Made by a program: the position numbers and the translations under genes. Shown here in pieces: positions 3,629 to 55,958 of a stretch of DNA of 64,000 nucleotides. Position 1 is the first letter of the stretch. Each line of letters starts with the position of its first letter. Under the pieces are notes generated by a model. That model ran no database searches, was not told the origin of the DNA, and saw nothing but the letters and a program-made list of their open reading frames with translations. Source of the stretch: Minisyncoccia bacterium (GTDB lineage Bacteria > Patescibacteriota > Minisyncoccia > Moranbacterales > GCA-2747515); assembly GCA_041738235.1 (NCBI GenBank), contig JBGSQF010000006.1, positions 18,261 through 82,260 of the forward strand, written 5' to 3'.

Positions 3629-3701
3629 GCGCCCATAGCTCAGCTGGTAGAGCAGTTGGCTCTTAACCAAACGGTCGTAGGTTCGAATCCTACTGGGCGC
3701 A
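3629..3701 (+). tRNA. tRNA-Lys (anticodon CTT)
   Basis: Hand-folded cloverleaf: acceptor gcgccca/tgggcgc, anticodon stem gttgg/ccaaa, loop ctCTTaa, T-loop ttcgaat. Confidence 0.9.
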
Positions 3702-3733
3702 CTAAAGACCTGTGTGAACATCTAATGAATTGA

Positions 3734-3805
3734 GCCCCGATAGCTCAATGGATAGAGCAGGAGTCTTCTAAGCTCTTGATGGGGGTTCGATTCCCTCTCG
3801 GGGTA
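3734..3805 (+). tRNA. tRNA-Arg (anticodon TCT)
   Basis: Acceptor gccccga/tcggggt, anticodon stem ggagt/gctct, loop ctTCTaa, T-arm gggggttcgattccctc. Confidence 0.9.
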
Positions 3806-3842
3806 CACAAAGAGCATTTTGAAGAGTGTGGCAAAGATATAT

Positions 3843-3916
3843 GGCGATTATCGTCTAATGGTTAAGACATCGGTTTGTGGTACCGAGAATCTGGGTTCGA
3901 TTCCCAGTAATCGCCC
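3843..3916 (+). tRNA. tRNA-His (anticodon GTG) with genome-encoded G-1
   Basis: Acceptor gcgatta/taatcgc with an extra 5-prime G pairing C73; anticodon stem tcggt/accga, loop ttGTGgt. Confidence 0.9.
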
Positions 3917-3941
3917 AGGTAGGTCACTGGAAGATATAGGG

Positions 3942-4015
3942 GCGCCCGTAGCTCAGTGGATTAGAGTACTTGGCTTCGAACCAAGGGGTCGCAGGTTCGA
4001 GTCCTGCCGGGCGCA
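3942..4015 (+). tRNA. tRNA-Arg (anticodon TCG)
   Basis: Acceptor gcgcccg/cgggcgc, anticodon stem cttgg/ccaag, loop ctTCGaa, T-loop ttcgagt. Confidence 0.85.
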
Positions 4016-4016
4016 C

Positions 4017-11403: not shown

Positions 11404-13173
11404 TTATTCTTTGGTAACACGCAATATCTCCTCTATGGAGGTGATCCCGAGAGCTGCCTTGATCATACCATCCTCTACCATTGTATGCATACCTGCTTTT
11501 CTTGATTCTAACTCAATATCCTCAGAAGAGGCTTTCTCAACGATCATCCTCCTGATAGTATCGTCTACCTCCATTACCTCAAATACTCCGTTTCTCCCCC
11601 GATACCCCTCATTGTTACAGCGAGCACACCCTTGTGCTCGGTAAAAAGAAACGTCCTCCCATGTTTGAATTTTCTTTTGCTTTGCAACTGAAGATTTTTG
11701 TAAAACGGCAAGTATTTCTTTCATGTTGAAACTCTCTCCTAATGTCTTCAGTTCCTCGGATGTTAATACGTAGGACTTCCGACAATCCGGACATAATCTT
11801 CGCACTAGTCTCTGTGCAATAATGACGTTCAACGTAGTCGCGACCAAGAATGGTTCGGCGCCCATATCCAACATTCTTGGTATCGTGGCAACAGCACTAT
11901 TCGTATGGAGCGTAGAAAGCACAAGATGTCCTGTCATAGCAGCATGCATGGCAATTTCCATGGTCTCTCCATCACGTATCTCCCCTACCATGATAATATC
12001 TGGATCCTGACGTAGTAACGAACGAAGTGCTGCTGCAAACGTCATGCCAATTTTTGATACTACCTGCGTTTGATTGATGCGTTGCATTCGATATTCAACA
12101 GGGTCTTCTACAGTACTAATATTCACTTCCGGGGTGTTAAGAATATCAACTACCGTGTAGAGCGTGGTAGTTTTCCCAGAACCCGTTGGCCCTGTAACCA
12201 ATATCATCCCGTTCGGCTTTTTTACCTCTCGATGCATGACTTCCAGATCTCGTCCCTCAAACCCGATCTTTTCCAAAGTGAGTCCCTTGGATGATTCATC
12301 CAAAAGACGCATAACGATCTTTTCACCGTCAAACACCGGTAAAATACTCACACGAAAAGAGATCTTATACCCTTCAGTTTCTATTTTAAACCTCCCATCC
12401 TGAGGTAATCTATGCTCATCCAACTTTAAGTTTGACAGCACTTTTATACGAGCAACAATGCCTTGTTGTACACTTCTCGGTAAACTCATAGCATCATGCA
12501 ATACCCCATCGATACGATATCGAACAACTACTTCTCTTTCTGTTGGTTCAATATGAATATCACTCGCCTGTTGCAAAATTGCATGTTTCAACAACGTATC
12601 TACAATACGAATGACAGGAACGTCCTCAGCAACTTTCTCCAAACTTTTTACATCACCATCTTCCTCCGGCTGATCGCTCTTTGCAGACTCGGAAAGAGAC
12701 TCTACATCCTGATCGATCAAATCTCCAAATTCCGCTTGTAAACTTTTTTCATATTGTTTCAATATTTCCGTAATACTTTCCTGTGAAGTGAGACAGGGAA
12801 TGATACGGAGACCCGTCTTCTTTTGAATGAAATCGATCGTCTGTAAATCATTCGGATTGAGCATGGCAACTTTAAGATTGCTTCCCTCCTTCTCAAATGC
12901 AACAATATTATATTTCTTGGCAATTGGAGCTGGAATGATCTGTAAAATATTTACAGGAATCTCATTCTTTTCCAAGTTCACAAAAGGGATCCCCAAGATC
13001 AATGAGTAGATCTTTCGTAGCTTCGTATCTTGAATAAATCCTCCTTTCAATAACACTTCTCCCAAAGAAACACCCTCTTTTTGAGAGGTGTCCCACGAAG
13101 CCTTAAGATCTTCCTTATTAAGAAAGTCAGCCCCCTGAAGAAACTCATAAAGTTGTTTATCCTGAATCTTCAT
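11404..13173 (-). CDS. pilB: Type IV pilus assembly ATPase PilB (GspE family)
   Basis: N-terminal MshEN-like domains, Walker A VTGPTGSGKTTTLY, Asp and His boxes, and a tetracysteine cluster CPDC...CARC. Confidence 0.85.
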   Translation of the reverse strand: MKIQDKQLYEFLQGADFLNKEDLKASWDTSQKEGVSLGEVLLKGGFIQDTKLRKIYSLILGIPFVNLEKNEIPVNILQIIPAPIAKKYNIVAFEKEGSNLKVAMLNPNDLQTIDFIQKKTGLRIIPCLTSQESITEILKQYEKSLQAEFGDLIDQDVESLSESAKSDQPEEDGDVKSLEKVAEDVPVIRIVDTLLKHAILQQASDIHIEPTEREVVVRYRIDGVLHDAMSLPRSVQQGIVARIKVLSNLKLDEHRLPQDGRFKIETEGYKISFRVSILPVFDGEKIVMRLLDESSKGLTLEKIGFEGRDLEVMHREVKKPNGMILVTGPTGSGKTTTLYTVVDILNTPEVNISTVEDPVEYRMQRINQTQVVSKIGMTFAAALRSLLRQDPDIIMVGEIRDGETMEIAMHAAMTGHLVLSTLHTNSAVATIPRMLDMGAEPFLVATTLNVIIAQRLVRRLCPDCRKSYVLTSEELKTLGESFNMKEILAVLQKSSVAKQKKIQTWEDVSFYRAQGCARCNNEGYRGRNGVFEVMEVDDTIRRMIVEKASSEDIELESRKAGMHTMVEDGMIKAALGITSIEEILRVTKE

Positions 13174-17337: not shown

Positions 17338-20300
17338 TCACACCAGCCACTTCTTCACCAACAATCCACCTTTTTCCATAGTGATAGTGTCTTGAGCATC
17401 TCTGGATTCCCCTGTAGCAGGATTTTGGACAGAGACTTTAACAGTATATACTCCAGCCTCAAGAAAAATAAGATAGCGCCCATGTTCATCAGCCATAGTT
17501 CTTGAAAGCATGCGCTCGTTTTTATCAAATACCGAGATAGTGGTAAACACAAGTCCCTTTTGGGAAAATCTTTCCTTAGAAACTACTTCTCCCCACTGAC
17601 GACTCTTATTTGTAAACTGCCTCACAAAGAAGAGGGCAATGTTAAAGAGTAAAAGCACCCAATAGGCAAGGTTACCACGATCAATAATAACAGCATACAT
17701 GGTCCAGAAAAAACTCACCACAAAAACAATAAAGAAAAAGGAATTGAGCCATACAGAAACATTAAAGAAACCAAGAAAACTAGAGGACCTTCTGATATCC
17801 GGCTTTCTTACAAGTATATTACAACGAATAAACTCTTTATTGGTTACCACAATGGGATCTCCCCGGTAAATATTAGTAATAAAAATAGAAGAGTTCTGTG
17901 TTTCTTTTTCAAAGGTATACCCTTCCTTCTCTGCTTGGATGGTGTAGGTACCGGGATCGACCAGAAAGCCGAAGCGTCCGAGCCTATCGGAGATGATGAC
18001 CTGTTTCTTTTGGGTCTGTTGGTTGATGAGCGTTAACGTGACGTAAGAAAGGATATTGCCCGTATTGGCGTCATAGGTCGTTCCCCAGGATCGTTTTCGA
18101 CGAAAGAACCCAACGATCCCGAAAGCACTTACCATTTGTTGTGTCAAACCTCGCGCAGTTAAGAGCCCAGGAGAAAATACCGACCCAAAAGATCGAAACA
18201 ACGTAGCTATGACCGCTGCTAACGTCAGTGTCTCAGCCGAAGACTCAGGATCCTTCGCCATCTCCTTGACAGCTGCAATAGCAGAACTTCCCATATTATC
18301 AATAAACTCTGGAGTAACTGCTGTAACTGCATGTCCAAGAGTACGAAGTCCTTTTGCAACTACTTCCTCTTGTGTTTGCTTTTGAATTTCATCACTCTTT
18401 AAAACAAAGGTTTTTGTTTCTGACCCTTCCGATGTCATATTGTTCTCATCGGTATAGGTAACATAAATAGTATGAACTCCCTGCTCAATGTCCTTATCCT
18501 TCATAACATATTCAATACTCCAGTGAGTATCAGCGCGCCCCGTAAAGCTAAAAGGACTAGAAAAAATATAAGCGGTAAGCGACCCAGGACCATCGGCCAT
18601 CCCCTTAACAATAAGTGTAGAATCTTTTCTCTCTATAGAAGTAACAGTTGGTGGTTTAGGAATGACGGTAACATTGAGAGAAGCTGTTCTTTTGACAGAT
18701 GTTGCGCTTGTAACACTTGCTTCTACAACATGAAGACCAGTGGTAGGGAACCTATAAGCAAAAGAATTCTCTTTGGAAACCACAACACCATCGACCGCCC
18801 AGGCATATGTATACGTACCGCTTTTATCTGGAAAGACTTGAAAGGTCGCCTCTTGCCCCTTTTCAAGTCGTTCTCTTGACGATGAGGCAGAGACGGAGAA
18901 ATTCTCTTCCTCACTATCCTTTTCTGGTATTATAATACGCCTCCCATTAGAGAATGCGCTCCTCGTTGACCCCTTATAAGCTCTCACGCGATATGTATAA
19001 GTCGCTCCAGGAACAAGAGTTTCAGTATCAATATATAGGATCTTATTCTTTTTGACAGTGGCGATCTCCTTAAAAGCATCACTCCCCTGTCTTCGTTGAA
19101 TACTATAACCATTCTCTAAATCAGTGTTGTCTTGCCATACAAGTCGAATGCCCTTCTCAACCCGCCTAATCCTGAGATTGGTGGGGCGTTGCTCTTGATC
19201 AACAAGAGAGAGCGCTTTTCTATAGATAGTTCCCGCATCACCTGATTGATATCCATTTCCTCCATCAACATTCTTAGTTCCTGTAAAAGTGCTTCTGTTA
19301 TAGTAAAGTGCAATTCTTCCCCCGCCTCCACCACCACCATGCGATCCTCCAACACCTCCCCGAGCACTAATAGATCCGCTCCCAGCAAATAAATTAGCTT
19401 GAAGATGCACAGACCCACCGGAACCACCCCCAGCATAGTCTCCCTCTCCGTCACTCCCATCCGCCACAATACTTCCACCAAGACTTATAGGGCCTGTCAC
19501 CGCTATTTTGACGGCTCCTGCTCCCGATCCACTCAATTGTGCGTCTCCAGATCCCCCACTTGACCCAATATCTGTTGGTTGTGTATCCGAACCGTACGAA
19601 GATCCTCCAAAAGTAGATGAATGGTCACCCACACCCCCCCTTCCTCCGAATCCGCCTCCGCCACCGCCAAAACCCCTCCCGGGACCATTTCCTTCACCAA
19701 AAGAGGTGGAAGTTCCAATATATCCCTTCCCGCTTACATCTATCTTCCCTCCCACATTGATCACAAGCCTTGCAAGAGAAAGATTGATCCCCTTGGTTTG
19801 GTTAACAACGTTAGCTTGATGCGTAAGAGTACCCCCTTTCGCAACCCGCATAGAATTAAAAGAAACTGCTGGTCCCAAGATATCTTGATTCTGAAATTCC
19901 ATGATCCCAAGAACAATAATATCCTTAATAGGCTGAACATCTCCAATGGCAGGATTAACACCATTTTCATACCAGGTAACATTTGCAGAAATAGTTAATG
20001 TAGATTGATAATGGTTATAGATGCCATTGTTAGTGATACTTGCAGCAGTCAACAAGGAAAGTTTTTCTTTCACAGTGATTGTGTAATCGTGCGCGATGAC
20101 ATATCTAGCTGAACCACGAACAGTGAGATGATTAAATACTGACGATTCAACAATGGTCGTAGTGGATCCAGAAACAGCACCATTTCCAACAACAAGATCC
20201 CCATACGTAGCAGAATTTGATTTGATAAAAATAGTTCCAGCCCCCCCTCGCTGATAGCCCGCTCCGCCAAATGCAGTCCTTATTCCATTAAAAGTATCGT

Positions 20301-21192
20301 CATTCGCATAATAAATAGCCAACCTTCCACCACCTCCGCCACCCTCCTCAGTTCCTCCAGAAGCACCCCCGTCAACTCTAATATCACCACTGCCGGCAAG
20401 TGTGCCCACAGTAAGATAGATAGATCCTCCTGATCCGCCTCCAGCGTCACCACTTCCATCACTCCCCTTCGAATAAATATTTCCCTCTATAGTAAGTGTT
20501 CCGGAAACATTCAATCTTATGACACCACCACCAGACCCACCAATACCGCTATAAGCCCCTCCGCTCGATCCAATGTCCGTTGGCTGGGCAACAGAACCAT
20601 ACGTGACACCCCCAACCGCTTCAGATGCATTTCCTCCATTACCACCGAAACCAGCACCGGAACCGGTAGAAGACCCCTTTACTCCTTTTCCTGGTCCATT
20701 ACCATTATCGGCACTTGCCCCCGCATACCCCTTTCCCGTCACACTTACTGTTCCACCACTTCTTACCGTCATATCACCTCCCACCTCTAGAAAGAGAGAA
20801 TGGATATGTGTAGTAGTATTGGCTGTATGTGTAAGTATTCCCAACTCTCCGATAATGACATCATTCGTAACAATAAGCTTTTTCGTATCTACATCTCCAT
20901 TCTCGATGGTAAAAGTCGAAGTTGTATTCTCTCCAATTGAAAGCGACTGTATTGTTATGGGTCCACCAGAAAGATCGATCGTCGGTTGATTCGTGCCTCC
21001 GTCTATGACAACGTCATCACCACTTTGGGGAGTGGTTGAAGCACAACTGCTCCAGTTAGAAGAGTTGCTCCAGTCTGTAGAAGAAGATCCTGTCCAAGTA
21101 CAGGTACCTGCATAAACCGGAAGTGCGCCAGAAAAAACCCCAAACACACTGAGGTAAAAAAATATAAAAAGAAAGTTTTGTTTTTTCTGCAT
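17338..21192 (-). CDS. Giant (1284 aa) secreted/membrane-anchored surface protein: signal peptide, two tandem Gly-rich beta-solenoid-like modules, FN3/PKD-like region, TM helices flanked by carboxypeptidase-regulatory-like domains
   Basis: Signal peptide FLFIFFYLSVFGVFSGALPVYA. A duplicated module of about 200 aa (..GKGY.G..GNGPG.G....YGS..QPTDIGSSGG...GSDG.GD.GGGSGGS..L.....GSG.I...GG..GGGGGGR.A.YY..) occurs twice. TM cluster FFFIVFVVSFFWTMYAVII. Two CarbopepD_reg-like segments (GTYTIQAEKEGYTFEKE and GVYTVKVSVQNP). Confidence 0.6.
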   Translation of the reverse strand: MQKKQNFLFIFFYLSVFGVFSGALPVYAGTCTWTGSSSTDWSNSSNWSSCASTTPQSGDDVVIDGGTNQPTIDLSGGPITIQSLSIGENTTSTFTIENGDVDTKKLIVTNDVIIGELGILTHTANTTTHIHSLFLEVGGDMTVRSGGTVSVTGKGYAGASADNGNGPGKGVKGSSTGSGAGFGGNGGNASEAVGGVTYGSVAQPTDIGSSGGAYSGIGGSGGGVIRLNVSGTLTIEGNIYSKGSDGSGDAGGGSGGSIYLTVGTLAGSGDIRVDGGASGGTEEGGGGGGRLAIYYANDDTFNGIRTAFGGAGYQRGGAGTIFIKSNSATYGDLVVGNGAVSGSTTTIVESSVFNHLTVRGSARYVIAHDYTITVKEKLSLLTAASITNNGIYNHYQSTLTISANVTWYENGVNPAIGDVQPIKDIIVLGIMEFQNQDILGPAVSFNSMRVAKGGTLTHQANVVNQTKGINLSLARLVINVGGKIDVSGKGYIGTSTSFGEGNGPGRGFGGGGGGFGGRGGVGDHSSTFGGSSYGSDTQPTDIGSSGGSGDAQLSGSGAGAVKIAVTGPISLGGSIVADGSDGEGDYAGGGSGGSVHLQANLFAGSGSISARGGVGGSHGGGGGGGRIALYYNRSTFTGTKNVDGGNGYQSGDAGTIYRKALSLVDQEQRPTNLRIRRVEKGIRLVWQDNTDLENGYSIQRRQGSDAFKEIATVKKNKILYIDTETLVPGATYTYRVRAYKGSTRSAFSNGRRIIIPEKDSEEENFSVSASSSRERLEKGQEATFQVFPDKSGTYTYAWAVDGVVVSKENSFAYRFPTTGLHVVEASVTSATSVKRTASLNVTVIPKPPTVTSIERKDSTLIVKGMADGPGSLTAYIFSSPFSFTGRADTHWSIEYVMKDKDIEQGVHTIYVTYTDENNMTSEGSETKTFVLKSDEIQKQTQEEVVAKGLRTLGHAVTAVTPEFIDNMGSSAIAAVKEMAKDPESSAETLTLAAVIATLFRSFGSVFSPGLLTARGLTQQMVSAFGIVGFFRRKRSWGTTYDANTGNILSYVTLTLINQQTQKKQVIISDRLGRFGFLVDPGTYTIQAEKEGYTFEKETQNSSIFITNIYRGDPIVVTNKEFIRCNILVRKPDIRRSSSFLGFFNVSVWLNSFFFIVFVVSFFWTMYAVIIDRGNLAYWVLLLFNIALFFVRQFTNKSRQWGEVVSKERFSQKGLVFTTISVFDKNERMLSRTMADEHGRYLIFLEAGVYTVKVSVQNPATGESRDAQDTITMEKGGLLVKKWLV

Positions 21193-24899: not shown

Positions 24900-26810
24900 T
24901 CAGCTATCAGACTCTTCCCTTGAGGCCTTTTGTAACAGTGTCTTAACTGCATTGATATCGGGTTCTGAGCGCTTTCTCAGAGGTTTGAATCTCTTAGGGG
25001 CCACATGATGCATCTGGGAAAGACGCATAGGTTCATCACGCGTTATATATGCCACAGGCTCTACATTTTGCTCAAGTTTTACTGTTTCCTCACGAGATGA
25101 TTTTGCAATAACAACGTTCTCCACCGTTGTTTTGACCACACTCGATCCAGATGCAACTTGAGTCTTCGCCATCGTCCGCTGGTATTCCTTGAGACACTCT
25201 TTGCAAAAAGTTGGGCGACGCCCATCTGGCACGAATGGAAGTTGTATCTTCAGCCCACAAGTGTCACAAAATGCATCGTACAAAACCCTCTCCGACGTAC
25301 GTCCTTCTTTTTTTACCTCTTCTTTTGGTAGAGAAACGGATGTCGATGCCACAACATTTTTCGTTCCTCCAGGCACGTCTTTTTTGACCAACTTCCGTGG
25401 TTGAGCAATAGAACTCGAAATTCTTTCAACAGAAGCAACTTCTCGCCTCCTTGGCGACAAAGGGTTCTTATGATCAGCCAAAGAAGCTTCCCTGCTGGGT
25501 TCTTGGACTGTCTGTACTGGCGGAGCAAATACACCACTCCATTCTCTGATTCCCTCTTCTACATCTTCTTTTGAGTAAGAATAAGATTCACGAGAACTGC
25601 CTATAACATCCTCAGAAACATCCTGTACATTCTCTGTCTCGATCGGAGGCAAGGTTGTCGCACTAAAAGCATCTCCAGCAATACCATCAATCATGAGCTT
25701 TAGATAAATGTGGTACTTTGGCAGATTGACCACATCATTCATCATGAAAACCGGCTCGAATTCTTTCTCCAAAAATTCAGCATCCATGGCTCCAACACGA
25801 AACGCGATGAGCGTCCCTGCATTTCCAAAAATAGCATCCCGCACGATCTCATCGATCTGGGTCACATATTGATTTGCAAGAATAAGGTTCAGACGATACT
25901 TTCTCGCCTCAGAAAGAATGTTGGCAAATGATTCCGTGGCAAAGTTTTGAAACTCATCTACATAGAGGTAAAAATCATTTCGAACATTTTCAGGAATATC
26001 CACTCGAGCCATTGCCGCCATCTGTATCTTCGTGATCATCATAGCTCCTAAAAGAGCACTGTTATCTTCTCCGATCCGTCCCTTTGCAAGATTGAGTATC
26101 AAGATCTTTCTGTTATCCATCGCTTCACGGATATTAAAAGACGATTTTGTTTGTCCTACAATATTACGGATCAAGGAGGTAGAAAGGAATTGTCCTACCT
26201 TGTTCTGGATAGGCGAGATCACTTCCTGCAACACTCGGTCATTCCACTTTGAAAATTCATCTACCCAAAACGACTTAACAACGGGATCGGTAACGCAATT
26301 GACCACCTGTGCACGATATTTTTTATCCACCAAAATGCGCATGACTCCCAATAAGGTACTTCCTGGATATTCCAGCAAAGCAAGGATGGCATTGCGTAAA
26401 ATATATTCAAGTCGCGGTCCCCATGACTCAGCCCACAGTTTTTTAAATACTCCTATCAGTCCAGATGCTACCAAATGCCGATATTCCGGGGCTACCTGCT
26501 CCATCACATTGAAAGCGATCGGAAACGCCTGGTCTGCAGGATTAAAATAGATCACATCTTTTATTCGATCCGGTGGGATCATTCGTATAAGTTTCTCAGC
26601 CGTATCTCCGTGCGGGTCAACATATGCCACACCGTGTCCATTTTGAATATCCTGCAAAACCAAATGTTCCAAAAGATTGGTCTTTCCCATTCCAGTCTTT
26701 CCAATGATGTACATATGTCGCCTTCGATCATCCGTCTTGATACCAAAAATAGCCTCCTGTCCACGGAAGTTTGTTTTGGCAAAATACGTTATATCATGAG
26801 ATTGAGGCAT
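24900..26810 (-). CDS. Soluble TraD/VirD4-HerA-superfamily ATPase (type IV coupling-protein-like) with C-terminal CxxC..CxxC zinc ribbon
   Basis: HMYIIGKTGMGKTNLLEHL (Walker A) ... VAYVDPHGD (the DPxGD box of TraD/TrwB/HerA) ... FYLYVDEFQNF (Walker B) ... CDTCGLKIQLPFVPDGRRPTFCKEC. No N-terminal TM anchor. Confidence 0.6.
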   Translation of the reverse strand: MPQSHDITYFAKTNFRGQEAIFGIKTDDRRRHMYIIGKTGMGKTNLLEHLVLQDIQNGHGVAYVDPHGDTAEKLIRMIPPDRIKDVIYFNPADQAFPIAFNVMEQVAPEYRHLVASGLIGVFKKLWAESWGPRLEYILRNAILALLEYPGSTLLGVMRILVDKKYRAQVVNCVTDPVVKSFWVDEFSKWNDRVLQEVISPIQNKVGQFLSTSLIRNIVGQTKSSFNIREAMDNRKILILNLAKGRIGEDNSALLGAMMITKIQMAAMARVDIPENVRNDFYLYVDEFQNFATESFANILSEARKYRLNLILANQYVTQIDEIVRDAIFGNAGTLIAFRVGAMDAEFLEKEFEPVFMMNDVVNLPKYHIYLKLMIDGIAGDAFSATTLPPIETENVQDVSEDVIGSSRESYSYSKEDVEEGIREWSGVFAPPVQTVQEPSREASLADHKNPLSPRRREVASVERISSSIAQPRKLVKKDVPGGTKNVVASTSVSLPKEEVKKEGRTSERVLYDAFCDTCGLKIQLPFVPDGRRPTFCKECLKEYQRTMAKTQVASGSSVVKTTVENVVIAKSSREETVKLEQNVEPVAYITRDEPMRLSQMHHVAPKRFKPLRKRSEPDINAVKTLLQKASREESDS

Positions 26811-42680: not shown

Positions 42681-42863
42681 ATGTATAATCGATATTTAAA
42701 CAAAAAACGTTTTTCTACGTCTCCTGGATTATAAAGACAAATAAGGAAAAAGTCAACAGCCAAGAATAAAAAACCAATACCCCTACAAATAGCACGGTTT
42801 CCCACAACTAAAAGTAAAGGTGCCAGATCCGATCCAGCCATTCACATTTTATAACCTACCTTG

Positions 42864-42934
42864 CAGGAGTGGAAGGAATCGGACCCTCGTATCAGGTTTT
42901 GGAGACCTGCGTTCTACCACTGAACTACACTCCC
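42864..42934 (-). tRNA. tRNA-Trp (anticodon CCA)
   Basis: Minus-strand cloverleaf: acceptor gggagtg/cactcct, anticodon stem caggt/acctg, loop ctCCAaa, discriminator G. Confidence 0.9.
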
Positions 42935-43040
42935 ATATGCACAACTCAATCCTATGAAAAAAGCACTCTTCTACTATACACAATTTTCTTCCAAAGAAAA
43001 AGAGGGTGCGCGATCTAGCAACCTCTTTTCTCAAGAAAGA

Positions 43041-43205
43041 CTACTTTACCTCTCGAAACTCCACATGAGACCGAGTAAGAGGACAATATCTTTTTTGCAC
43101 TAACTTCACTTGTATCTTTTTCTTATTCCGCTTTGTAAAATAGGTAATTCCAGGACAGTCCTTACTTCGAAGCTTGACCAACCTTTCTTTATACTTTGTT
43201 GCCAT
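43041..43205 (-). CDS. rpmG: 50S ribosomal protein L33 (54 aa; absent from the ORF track because it is under 60 aa)
   Basis: Translation MATKYKERLVKLRSKDCPGITYFTKRNKKKIQVKLVQKRYCPLTRSHVEFREVK; the C-terminus Y.P..R.HV.F.E.K matches L33 (E. coli ..KFDPVVRQHVIYKEAK). Confidence 0.75.
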   Translation of the reverse strand: MATKYKERLVKLRSKDCPGITYFTKRNKKKIQVKLVQKRYCPLTRSHVEFREVK

Positions 43206-43370
43206 ACTCTCTTACGTTAAAACAGCTTATTACACACTTCTGCCTCTTCTTCTCAAAGGGGAAAATCCAAAACCTTTCCCCAACGATACCCGAACAAAAG
43301 AGAAAAGTCAAGAAAACGATTCGTAGACTAGTCAAAAAAATTCTTCACAAAAAACCATCTGCGATATATG

Positions 43371-43443
43371 AGCCGAGATCGGGAATCGAACCCGAGACCT
43401 CATCCTTACCATGGATGCGCTCTACCGACTGAGCTATCTCGGC
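43371..43443 (-). tRNA. tRNA-Thr (anticodon GGT)
   Basis: Acceptor gccgaga/tctcggc, anticodon stem catcc/ggatg, loop atGGTaa. Confidence 0.9.
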
Positions 43444-43499
43444 ATTTAAAACACCGCACAACCTCCTTTATAAAAGGTTGAGAAGCAAAAGGATCTCTG

Positions 43500-43582
43500 T
43501 GGGCAGGGAGGGATTCGAACCCCCGTAGACCGAAGTCGGCAGATTTACAGTCTGCTGCGATTGACCGCTCCGCCACCTACCC
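43500..43582 (-). tRNA. tRNA-Tyr (anticodon GTA), long variable arm
   Basis: Acceptor gggtagg/cctgccc, anticodon stem gcaga/tctgc, loop ctGTAaa, 14-nt variable arm, T-loop ttcgaat. Confidence 0.9.
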
Positions 43583-43667
43583 ATTCATACAACTCTCTTT
43601 CTACACTATTTTCCTCCTTTGGGCAAATATGCCACCACATCATCACCAAATACCCGTTACTTTTCTG

Positions 43668-43740
43668 AGCCATCTGTCGGGCTCGAACCGACGACCTGCG
43701 GTTTACAAAACCGCTGCTCTACCAACTGAGCTAAGATGGC
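43668..43740 (-). tRNA. tRNA-Thr (anticodon TGT)
   Basis: Acceptor gccatct/agatggc, anticodon stem gcggt/accgc, loop ttTGTaa. Confidence 0.9.
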
Positions 43741-53773: not shown

Positions 53774-53837
53774 AGAGCTCTGTATATTAGAAGATAAATA
53801 CCCATTCAGTATAAGCGAATCTGGTAAAAAAAGCAAA

Positions 53838-53859
53838 AAGCGGGGAAACCCGCTTTTTG
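53838..53859. terminator. Intrinsic terminator downstream of the Cys-rich secreted-protein gene
   Basis: aaaa-AGCGGG-gaaa-CCCGCT-ttttt. Confidence 0.5.
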
Positions 53860-53947: not shown

Positions 53948-54553
53948 TTAATCAAAGCATGTACAGCCTGTATCAGTTGTGGTCATACCATTTAGGAGTC
54001 CCGCCGCATAGCCAGCGTTCCTACAATATCTATTGCAGGAGGTTCCACACGCCACAAGCTCTCCCGCTGAGCCAAGCCCACTTATCCCAGTGCCACGTAC
54101 ATCACACGGAGAATTAAGAGAATACATAGTATTATTTGACACCAACACAGAATACGATTTTCGTGGCATGGATGCAGTGGTCGCAAATGGAGGAGTTGCA
54201 CAGTTCAAACCATTCTTATCACAATATGCTGATGCGCCCACATTTCCCTCAACATCGACTTTTAGCGTACCGTCTGGGGTTGAATCCCCAATTCCCACCT
54301 TTCCATTTGCCACAATAAGCCCATTTGCCGCCACAGGAATACCATTAAGACCAGTGTTAAGGATAAGGTTCCCATCCTTGATCTGTCCTGCTCCCGTAGT
54401 AATAGGTCCGGAAACAGTGGCAGTTGTGGGATCACCCGCGGGTGCTGGTGTCCATGCTGCCTGAGCAAATTGAAGACCGACGCCCAGAGCCGCCCCTAAT
54501 ACAACAACCTTAGACCAGTAACCAACTTCTTTAAAAACACTTTTACTCTGCAT
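53948..54553 (-). CDS. Secreted Gly-rich / C-terminal 8-Cys protein (bacteriocin- or adhesin-like), unknown
   Basis: Signal peptide VVVLGAALGVGLQFAQA; Gly/Asn-rich beta-strand-like middle region; 8 Cys in the last 75 aa. Confidence 0.5.
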   Translation of the reverse strand: MQSKSVFKEVGYWSKVVVLGAALGVGLQFAQAAWTPAPAGDPTTATVSGPITTGAGQIKDGNLILNTGLNGIPVAANGLIVANGKVGIGDSTPDGTLKVDVEGNVGASAYCDKNGLNCATPPFATTASMPRKSYSVLVSNNTMYSLNSPCDVRGTGISGLGSAGELVACGTSCNRYCRNAGYAAGLLNGMTTTDTGCTCFD

Positions 54554-54602: not shown

Positions 54603-54995
54603 TTATTGTCTCAAGGCCTTTTCTAACTCATCCTGAGAATAATTTGTTACCTCTTCTTCAGGAGCGAGAACGGTGAGTACTTCTCTCAACTGTTTCTGCT
54701 CAACCGTCGGGTCAATCTTGACCTGGGGGGAATCCCCTTCTTGATCTCTAGATTCAACGGATTCGGCAGATTTGTCCAATGCCAATTGCAATTCTTCTTG
54801 AGTATATACAACTGGTTTTACGTCATCAGTATGCTTTAAAGAGGGCGCCTCTACTCCAACTCCCTTTGTAAAGACATCCACAGCGATCAGTACCACAAAG
54901 ATCATTATGACACCAAGTACTACAAGAAGGATCTTAATTGAAGAATTTTTTTGATCAGGCATAGTGTTTATTTTAAAATTTTGTAACGTCTTCAC
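54603..54995 (-). CDS. Membrane-anchored acidic protein (unknown)
   Basis: TM ILLVVLGVIMIFVVLIAV, then a Glu/Asp/Gln-rich tail. Confidence 0.4.
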   Translation of the reverse strand: MKTLQNFKINTMPDQKNSSIKILLVVLGVIMIFVVLIAVDVFTKGVGVEAPSLKHTDDVKPVVYTQEELQLALDKSAESVESRDQEGDSPQVKIDPTVEQKQLREVLTVLAPEEEVTNYSQDELEKALRQ

Positions 54996-55038: not shown

Positions 55039-55958
55039 TTAAGGAGCTACTTCCCTAAATCCTGCAGGATTGCATACTTTTGTTCCGGGTGAAGCAGGAC
55101 TACAACCGTTGTTACATGTAGATCCGATACATGTCGATGACTCGCATCCATTTGGGAGGCACGGGTCAGATACAGTGACAGTGACTGAATAAGAGTTTAC
55201 CCCTTTTTGAGCTGTTACTGTTTCCGTTCCGACAGCCAGGGCTTCTATTCTTTTTTTAGAACTGTCATCGATAAAATGCGCGAAATCCTTTCCTGATTCA
55301 TCACTCCATGTTGTGGTTGCAGTAACGTCCGTAGATCCGTCACAGGCCACGATCGGCAAAGATGTTCTACTGCTCAACGTAAGACTTATCGCTGAAGGAA
55401 CAGGGGATCCTGTACTACAATCATCAAATTTTAAAGTTAGGGTCGGCGCCGGGGCAGGTTTTCCGGAAAATTGGATGAATCCAAGCTCATCACTCCATGC
55501 GTATCCTTGAAGCTCCTGAGTACTTGGATCGATCGTCACGCCGTTCAGCTGTACAAAACCACTCCACCCACCAGAATTTCCAACAGCTTCCTCATTTTTA
55601 ATAGAGAGAATTCGAGCCCATCCTTGCAAGGTGTTCCCAACCCTTTTTGAATAGCACGTTCCCGATACTGGACAACCCACGACATCTGCATCTTCAAAAC
55701 TTACCCATCCGTATCCATGACCACCCCAAGCATGTCCAGTAACATCTCCATCGGTTTCTGGCATAACAACCTGAGTCGCATCAAAGGCACCGGAACCCTG
55801 ATAAATGCTCGGTGTCAAACCGTCATTGGTCCCCCCCCAAAAAATATGCTATACCTCCTCCCACACCATCAAGAGCATTCGTTATTCCTGCGACAAATAC
55901 CATCCCTAAAAATGCAAGAGCAAATATGGGAAGCGTGAAGAGAAGTTTTGTTTTCATA
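55039..55958 (-). pseudogene. Secreted Cys-rich protein gene interrupted by a frameshift at a poly-C(8) tract (55831-55838)
   Basis: An ATG at 55958 encodes a signal peptide MKTKLLFTLPIFALAFLGMVFVAGITNA...; the reading frame breaks in the C8 run; the downstream ORF 55039-55818 carries AWxxxGWxxF-type repeats and a Cys-rich C-terminus. Nine Cs would restore one 306-aa ORF. Confidence 0.45.

Follow-up and report, generated by a model that had tools for sequence, protein, structure and literature searches.

A probable recent frameshift at a compound T6G8 homopolymer in a secreted-protein gene of a Moranbacteria genome

On the minus strand of the window (the whole 64-kb stretch of DNA that was analysed, from a Moranbacteria genome), a compound homopolymer of six T and eight G (T6G8, 55844..55831) splits a gene by a one-nucleotide frameshift, which raises the question whether the gene has been caught in the silent phase of an evolved switch, has been inactivated by ordinary mutation, is expressed through some form of recoding, or is intact in the cell and broken only in the assembly. 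The initial annotation had described one secreted-protein gene cut by a single-base homopolymer frameshift, and intact homologues that span both open reading frames (ORFs) bear out this description.

Two reading frames of one gene

The G8 run (55831..55838, minus strand; C8 on the plus strand) can be read from the sequence exactly where it had been reported, and on the plus strand it is directly followed by an A6 run, which is the abutting T6 of the minus strand (55839..55844, evident from the sequence and its translation). The minus strand reads GGT ATA GCA TAT TTT TTG GGG GGG GAC CAA TGA across the site, which lies about 120 nt into the gene and occupies codons 38-42. According to the ORF list and the translation, the ATG start of the ancestral full-length gene is located at 55955..55957 (minus strand) and begins at 55957, not at 55958 as originally stated; homologues start at the equivalent Met, which in P0001 is the first residue of the N-terminus MKIKFLL.... 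The upstream ORF (55957..55823, minus strand) encodes 44 amino acids (MKTKLLFTLPIFALAFLGMVFVAGITNALDGVGGGIAYFLGGDQ) and starts with the signal peptide MKTKLLFTLPIFALAFLGMVFVAGITNA, as previously noted, but its frame does not end inside the tract: the product, as assembled, is terminated by a premature TGA (55823..55825, minus strand) six bases beyond it. The downstream ORF that runs to 55039 is present in the ORF list in another frame, also as previously noted, and encodes 259 amino acids (55818..55039, minus strand, with TAA at 55039).

All G-run lengths from 5 to 11 were translated, and T-run lengths were varied as well. G7 and G10 give single ORFs of 305 and 306 amino acids, respectively, and G8, G9, and G11 give products of 44, 47, and 45 amino acids; with G8 unchanged, T5 gives 305 amino acids and T8 gives 306. 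The frames are fused by loss of one base or gain of two, in either the T run or the G run. A tract of nine C, which had been predicted to join the ORFs into a protein of 306 residues, leaves the gene off upon direct translation, with a product of 47 residues.

With the repaired protein as the query, 59 homologues were found, of which the best (P0001, 304 aa) is 79% identical over 100% of the length (E 3e-162), and P0003, P0004, and P0006 (293-302 aa) cover the repaired protein from end to end. In the intact homologues, A-Y-F-W-G-G-T stands after the signal peptide where the window has the tract, and the next residue is N, T, or S. A family HMM built from 24 sequences matches the 44-aa ORF at profile positions 1-40 (E 3e-4) and the 259-aa ORF at profile positions 36-325 (E 4.7e-89). 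Because the two ORFs match adjoining parts of the HMM, and of the intact homologues, they are the halves of one conserved protein of about 305 amino acids; judged by sequence similarity, their origin from a single gene is far beyond chance. The family HMM found no paralogue of the split gene elsewhere in the 64-kb window. Family loci were collected by a scan of GTDB species representatives, which do not include the window's own species and which yielded 79 loci, the best at 42% identity; none of approximately 75 family members inspected is split between the signal peptide and the mature domain. A few loci were flagged as having no signal peptide, due to spurious upstream starts, masked runs of N, or contig ends.

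The repaired gene contains no second lesion. Its dN/dS relative to the ortholog in L004 is 0.116 (at dS 1.0), with values of 0.23 before the tract and 0.10 after it; the neighbouring genes have values of 0.03-0.16, and the halves of the split gene were counted as falling in that range. By this measure, both halves are evidently under purifying selection. The combination of a single lesion and a low dN/dS indicates that the damage is recent.

The public annotation divides the locus differently, into a 241-aa protein (P0002, which begins with MPETDG) starting from an internal ATG (55762..55764, minus strand) and a separate 44-aa protein (P0060). NCBI and Logan both annotate P0002 in this way, but it is scarcely credible that the downstream ORF is an independent functional gene starting at 55764: the start is not conserved, the initial Met of P0002 corresponds to a Val, Ile, or Leu within the intact homologues, and the product would have no signal peptide despite its ten Cys residues and Ig-like domain. 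P0005, the only other short form of 241 aa, was considered as a possible recurrence of the frameshift and rejected as a truncation at a contig end: its contig begins with a Nextera adapter, and its frame is open upstream.

Origin of the frameshift

In the five nearest relatives, Y-F-W-G-G takes up 15 nt, namely TAT TTT TGG GGA GGA in L004, TAT TTC TGG GGA GGC in L084, TAT TTT TGG GGA GGG in L085, TAT TTT TGG GGT GGC in L086, and TAC TTC TGG GGA GGC in L003, and the window has 16 nt at this place (TATTTTTTGGGGGGGG). The T run is T5 in three of these five, and T5 is the maximum among relatives. Removal of one T gives TAT TTT TGG GGG GGG, which restores Y-F-W-G-G and makes the surrounding ...AYFWGGTNDG... 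identical to P0001; in the T5 repaired frame, the G8 run lies within TGG GGG GGG, encoding Trp40-Gly41-Gly42. Repair to G7 or G10 restores the frame, but residue 40 becomes Leu, although Trp40 is kept in more than 90% of the 24 aligned family sequences and Gly41 and Gly42 are also conserved. Since deletion of a T restores the Trp and the motif exactly, parsimony points to a change from T5 to T6 as the lesion, and an extra base in the T run is, on the sequence, the most plausible; it need not lie in the C run, where it had been placed. The G8 run would then be at its native in-frame length, and may have been created by synonymous changes of GGA to GGG. This leaves room for an alternative history, in which a W40L substitution was followed by a change from G7 to G8. 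A seven-base G run should slip much more readily than a five-base T run, as slippage depends on run length, and a lesion in the T run is somewhat unexpected when the adjacent G8 would be expected to slip far more often than T5; the alternative, however, needs two steps. From one sequence, the two histories do not separate cleanly.

The T6G8 sequence is identical in three of three assemblies: the NCBI genome assembly (a MAG) and Logan assemblies of two runs, of which SRR28170474 provides contig L001 (5.6 kb) and SRR28170473 provides contig L002 (0.96 kb), each containing T6G8 and each an exact substring of the window. ORFs of 100 aa or longer cover 87% of the window, and its larger gaps contain eight tRNA genes. 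The window has 64 A/T runs of 7 or more bases and two C7 runs (19634-19640 and 20241-20247), none of which breaks an ORF, and no other visibly broken gene was found in the 64 kb; that no further gene is broken despite so many runs suggests that the assembly is not prone to homopolymer errors. An artefact of sequencing or assembly, with T5G8 (or T6G7) as the true sequence and an intact gene, would fit the otherwise perfect gene, and homopolymers are the commonest place for indel miscalls. The two Logan contigs and the submitted genome assembly may go back to the same libraries, and both runs may share a systematic error at T6G8. Against this, three assemblies, produced with different software from two runs, are identical at every base, the other long A/T runs and the C7 runs of the window leave its ORFs unbroken, and k-mer assemblies of the short-read type reproduce 4.7 kb exactly, which we take to speak against noisy long reads. 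An artefact is thus improbable, and the homopolymer miscall offered in the initial annotation as one of two explanations appears unlikely, given three concordant assemblies and a window that is otherwise intact.

We infer a real mutation and a null product. A recent, genuine inactivating slippage frameshift at T6G8 is favoured with moderate confidence. Slipped-strand mispairing where the T run meets the G run would have inserted one base into the dominant genotype; translation from the ATG at 55957 would then yield only the 44-aa peptide, consisting of the signal peptide and 16 residues, and the mature part of about 260 residues would be left without an export signal, so that the first gene of its operon would be off. 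Loss of one base in either run would restore expression, as the wild type in the case of T5G8 and with W40L in the case of T6G7. The site is intrinsically unstable, and the mutation is revertible in principle; nothing indicates that T6G8 has been selected for mutability.

That the locus evolved as a phase-variable (contingency) locus, with slippage of G8 and/or T6 and with the OFF phase caught by the assemblies, is unlikely, though several properties of the site suit it. G8 abuts T6 at codons 38-42 of a gene encoding a signal peptide and an Ig-like domain, a change of one base in either direction toggles the frame, and a single lesion accompanies purifying selection on both halves. Export of the product is suggested by the predicted signal peptide, Ig-like domain, and Cys-rich tail, and a G8 run some 120 nt into a surface-protein gene is where classical contingency tracts sit. 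Parallels are known in inlA (PMC2831843) and glpK (PMC10334774) and in poly-G tracts of surface genes in Neisseria and Campylobacter. The repeat lies inside an ORF and its number switches the frame, as in a contingency locus, but it is neither kept in orthologs nor over-represented (as tested in the window). Of the 42 xWGG sites of relatives at which the G run was counted, 37 have four G, four have five, and one has seven, and none has eight; the relatives' G4 is interrupted by A, T, or C at the third positions of Gly codons, the pattern in the five nearest being TGGGG(A/T)GG(A/C/G), and none of the approximately 75 family members is split at the tract. The window has no excess of long G/C runs: base composition predicts 0.9 C8 runs, and one is observed.

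Length variants number zero among the three assemblies; a contig consensus hides minority alleles, so their absence there is absence of evidence, not disproof. The exact products of T5G8, T6G7, and T6G10 and the alternative short peptides are absent from approximately 15 billion proteins, and a search of JGI metagenome contigs with the flanks of the tract and a variable gap between them gave no matches. To our knowledge, no example of phase variation by simple sequence repeats has been described in the Patescibacteria/CPR episymbiotic radiation, and a full-text literature search combining Patescibacteria with phase-variation terms returned no mention of Patescibacteria in the 15 matches listed, out of 382 that shared two or more of the terms. 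The initial proposal of phase variation therefore gains no positive evidence with respect to an evolved contingency locus, the tract being unconserved and no length variant having been found, and it is doubtful that, in the Moranbacteria cell, T6G8 works as an ON/OFF switch of the gene heading a conserved surface-protein operon.

Known homopolymer loci offer partial likenesses. The system most similar in mechanism is inlA of Listeria monocytogenes, where a one-base change in the 5' poly(A) run leaves a product of 8 aa (Orsi et al. 2010, PMC2831843); the inlA frameshift arose at least twice independently, and its reversion, the frequency of which was measured, is approximately 1,000 times more frequent than point mutation (PMC2831843). 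Both loci have a short A/T run early in a surface-protein gene, a change of one base, and a short N-terminal peptide as the result; unlike inlA, the T6G8 locus is known from one genotype, and its A/T run abuts G8. The poly-G/C loci of Neisseria, Haemophilus, and Campylobacter (hmbR/hpuA, PMC3786947; PMC8355987) likewise have a G/C run of about 8 bases in the 5' coding region, and their tracts are maintained among strains, variable in length within populations, and numerous per genome; the G8 run, in contrast, is absent in all relatives, unvarying in the assemblies, and not over-represented. In Mycobacterium tuberculosis, frameshifting of glpK at a 7-nt homopolymer was measured with a 7G reporter tract (PMC10334774), and the T6G8 locus resembles this system in its revertible silencing by a G/C run of 7-8 bases in an organism that is not classically phase-variable. 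The "frameshift scars" left where a nearby second indel restores the frame with a local change of residues (Gupta & Alland 2021, as summarized in PMC10334774) would have a parallel in T6G7, which would give W40L. Recurrence in M. tuberculosis was shown by homoplasy across thousands of isolates, whereas the T6G8 lineage is known from one genotype.

It is very improbable that the full-length protein is made from T6G8 by a +1 ribosomal slip or by a one-base transcriptional deletion. A +1 slip of tRNA-Phe on UUU_U would re-pair perfectly and give Y-F-W-G-G-T, and in this the site is like prfB: re-pairing of the P-site tRNA one base downstream on a U-rich codon would give the conserved protein. Unlike prfB, it has no conserved shift, slow A-site codon, or correctly spaced Shine-Dalgarno (SD)-like stimulator. 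The frameshift is conserved in no relative, all of them being in frame across the site; the A-site codon in the 0 frame, UUG, is common (23% of Leu codons), so no ribosomal pause is expected there; and a GGAGG-like element precedes the UUU codon by 9 nt, as against the spacing of about 3 nt for the SD-like element of prfB. No frameshift-stimulating RNA structure stands out downstream of the slip site (fold z = +0.49). Neither the conservation nor the slow A-site codon with a stimulator that characterize programmed +1 frameshifts of the prfB or antizyme type was found. A -1 ribosomal frameshift on U_UUU_UUG was also considered and rejected, as it ends at a stop codon with the same product as G9. 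Transcriptional slippage, for which the threshold in reporter-gene work is an A or T run of about 9 bases or more, would have to delete a base in a T run of just 6, and T6 is not the long A/T run on which rescue by slippage depends. In A/T runs, RNA polymerase mainly inserts bases, and does so exponentially more often as the run grows, as determined for runs of up to 9 nt in Escherichia coli and 11 nt in Buchnera; homopolymer deletions are rarely initiated in E. coli, and G/C runs are under-represented in slippage (PMC5574713). Homopolymer frameshifts are known to be tolerated in small-genome symbionts (PMC5574713; PMC5009743), which is in favour of recoding.

The operon and the protein family

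The split gene is the first of three on the minus strand. The second (54603..54995), identified by its sequence and by the position of its ortholog, encodes a small protein that has a single transmembrane segment and is acidic (22 D+E versus 14 K+R), in keeping with its earlier description as membrane-anchored and acidic; alignment of the ortholog from residue 12 onward makes the ATG at 54962 the likely true start. The third (53948..54553), identified by sequence and tblastn, encodes a 201-aa protein for which the earlier label of Gly-rich with eight Cys agrees with the counts (8 Cys, 14% Gly); its conserved N-terminus consists of a signal anchor followed by AW-T-x-P...G-P-I-T-T...Q-x-K-x-G, and it contains a GxVGIG motif. 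A strong intrinsic terminator (53834..53859, minus strand; AAAAAGCGGGTTTCCCCGCTTTTTGCTTTTTTT), with an 11-bp stem that includes 6 GC pairs and a T-run, closes the unit. The order and strand of the three genes are kept in the closest relatives (L003, L004, L085, and L086), and at approximately 38 of the 79 loci of distant relatives, a homologue of the 201-aa protein was found by tblastn just downstream on the same strand. The third-gene equivalent in L085 carries Peptidase_S74, a domain of the endosialidase-chaperone type found in tail fibres. The conserved order and the partner homologues support the earlier grouping of the three genes as a small secreted-protein unit, in the form of a conserved operon; the role of "effector" or "adhesin" proposed for it is conjecture.

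The signal peptide of the repaired protein (residues 1-28; 55874..55957, minus strand), read from the sequence with a predicted cleavage site, has two Lys residues in its n-region, a hydrophobic core, and T-N-A in its c-region; an AlphaFold (AF2) model of the repaired protein (mean pLDDT 72) has a helix at residues 3-26 that corresponds to it, and nearly all of the approximately 75 relatives have equivalent hydrophobic N-termini. Y-F-W-G-G lies about 12 residues past the signal peptide. The mature part (55039..55830, minus strand), which is out of frame with the start, is delineated by the HMM, the AF2 model, Foldseek, and the dN/dS of 0.10. In the model, a beta-rich N-domain (residues ~58-165) carries the AWS...GW.xF repeats, which in the family take the forms G-Y-A-W-S-x-x-x-G-W-I-x-F and N-S-G-G-W-x-G-W. 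The two AW...GW repeats announced in the initial annotation are present at the level of the family (GYAWSENxGWISF and GYAWSDELGWIDF), but in the repaired protein itself they are only approximate (AWGGHGYGWVSF and AWSDELGFIQF). Foldseek matches the predicted structure at residues ~173-265 to the Ig-like domains of Big_2, Lig, and phage lambda gpV, so that the repaired protein, like LigA and LigB of Leptospira, would combine a signal peptide with a central Ig-like domain superposing on Big_2. Unlike LigA and LigB, it matches no Pfam family at E<=0.1, Big_2 included, and only a sub-threshold match to LigA/LigB (E ~0.2) was obtained with a PDB sequence profile. Pfam and NCBIfam have no model for the repaired protein or for its two neighbours. 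The Cys-rich tail is of low confidence in the AF2 model and ends in FREVAP; instead of the C-terminus of nine Cys that had been reported, ten Cys were counted in the whole protein, six of them within the last 40 residues.

The C-terminal motif W/F-K/R-E-V/I-A/S/T-P is invariant across the family, and among 2,834 ORFs of at least 80 aa that were scanned, it occurs in 32 family ORFs and no others. A literature search on the KEVAP/REVAP C-terminal motif found nothing useful, and we know of no described counterpart of the N-terminal repeat domain or of the W-K/R-E-V-A-P motif. At a cutoff of E<=1e-3, the family profile matches the representatives of 7,346 clusters (50% identity), and at E<=1e-30 those of 503; according to named sources and GTDB titles, they come mostly from Moranbacteria/Moraniibacteriota and other Patescibacteria.

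Implications

What the locus shows is most probably an ordinary mutation of recent date that inactivated the gene where a compound homopolymer is prone to slip, and its meaning is mainly a point of annotation: the publicly recorded coding sequences of 44 and 241 aa are two parts of a single frameshifted gene and ought to be labelled accordingly. If length heterogeneity were seen at the level of reads, it would indicate that a CPR bacterium switches a surface protein stochastically, which would be worth following up since CPR bacteria are thought to depend on attachment to host cells. The target of such a switch, if it is true, would be a member of a very large unannotated family of secreted proteins with a unique C-terminal tag and a partner gene resembling those of tail fibres. 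With thousands of members in Patescibacteria and a conserved partner gene, this family deserves study more than the tract itself does.

Homopolymer runs and chromosomal setting

Across the whole window, C is markedly more frequent than G on the forward strand, likely because the minus strand carries most of the genes, and this excess of C accounts for the number of C8 runs expected by chance on the forward strand being 0.9, versus only 0.04 for G8. Two G7 runs on the coding strand (19634-19640 and 20241-20247) lie within a minus-strand ORF (17338-21192) that encodes a single 1,284-aa protein with a CarboxypepD_reg domain; both are in frame and encode R-G-G, and in read data they would provide an internal check on homopolymer error or slippage. 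The two tRNA clusters, Lys-Arg-His-Arg (3629-4016, plus strand) and Trp-Thr-Tyr-Thr (42863-43740, minus strand), taken together with genes encoding a type IV pilus/T2SS ATPase (11404-13173), a TrwB/TraG-like coupling protein (24900-26810), DnaB, CysRS and RmuC, indicate an ordinary chromosomal context.

The 201-aa neighbour

The 201-aa protein encoded by the third gene of the operon (53948-54553, minus strand) and its homologues (for example, L011 7142-7444 and L085 1697-2689 among the relatives' loci) share a conserved N-terminus, consisting of a signal anchor followed by A-W-T-E-P...P-P-G-G-N-x-G-A-P-I-N-T...Q-x-K-x-G. Of 79 distant genomes, about 38 have such a homologue immediately downstream of their homologue of the split gene, and one homologue of the 201-aa protein contains a Peptidase_S74 (tail-fibre-like) domain.

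A Patescibacteria-specific family and its C-terminal motif

The split gene (55039-55957, minus strand) and its homologues in loci L004-L086 belong to a very large, Patescibacteria-specific family (7,346 representatives of 50%-identity clusters, E<=1e-3), which no Pfam or NCBIfam model covers. Its members are marked by G-W-L-W-G-G, which closely follows the signal peptide, and by G-Y-A-W-S-E-N-x-G-W-I-S-F motifs that occur repeatedly. The 241-aa homologue P0005 was ruled out as a truly truncated member: its apparent truncation is due to a Nextera adapter sequence (AGATGTGTATAAGAGACAG) that opens the Logan contig encoding it (SRR29362685_262303; L003 1-25). The motif W/F-K/R-E-V/I-A/S/T-P, found in the split gene at 55042-55059 (minus strand), is located at the C-terminus, or within three residues of it, in every family member (32 family ORFs in the loci); of the 2,834 ORFs scanned, all the others lack this ending. 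A literature search for the C-terminal motif found nothing; it may be a sorting or processing tag.
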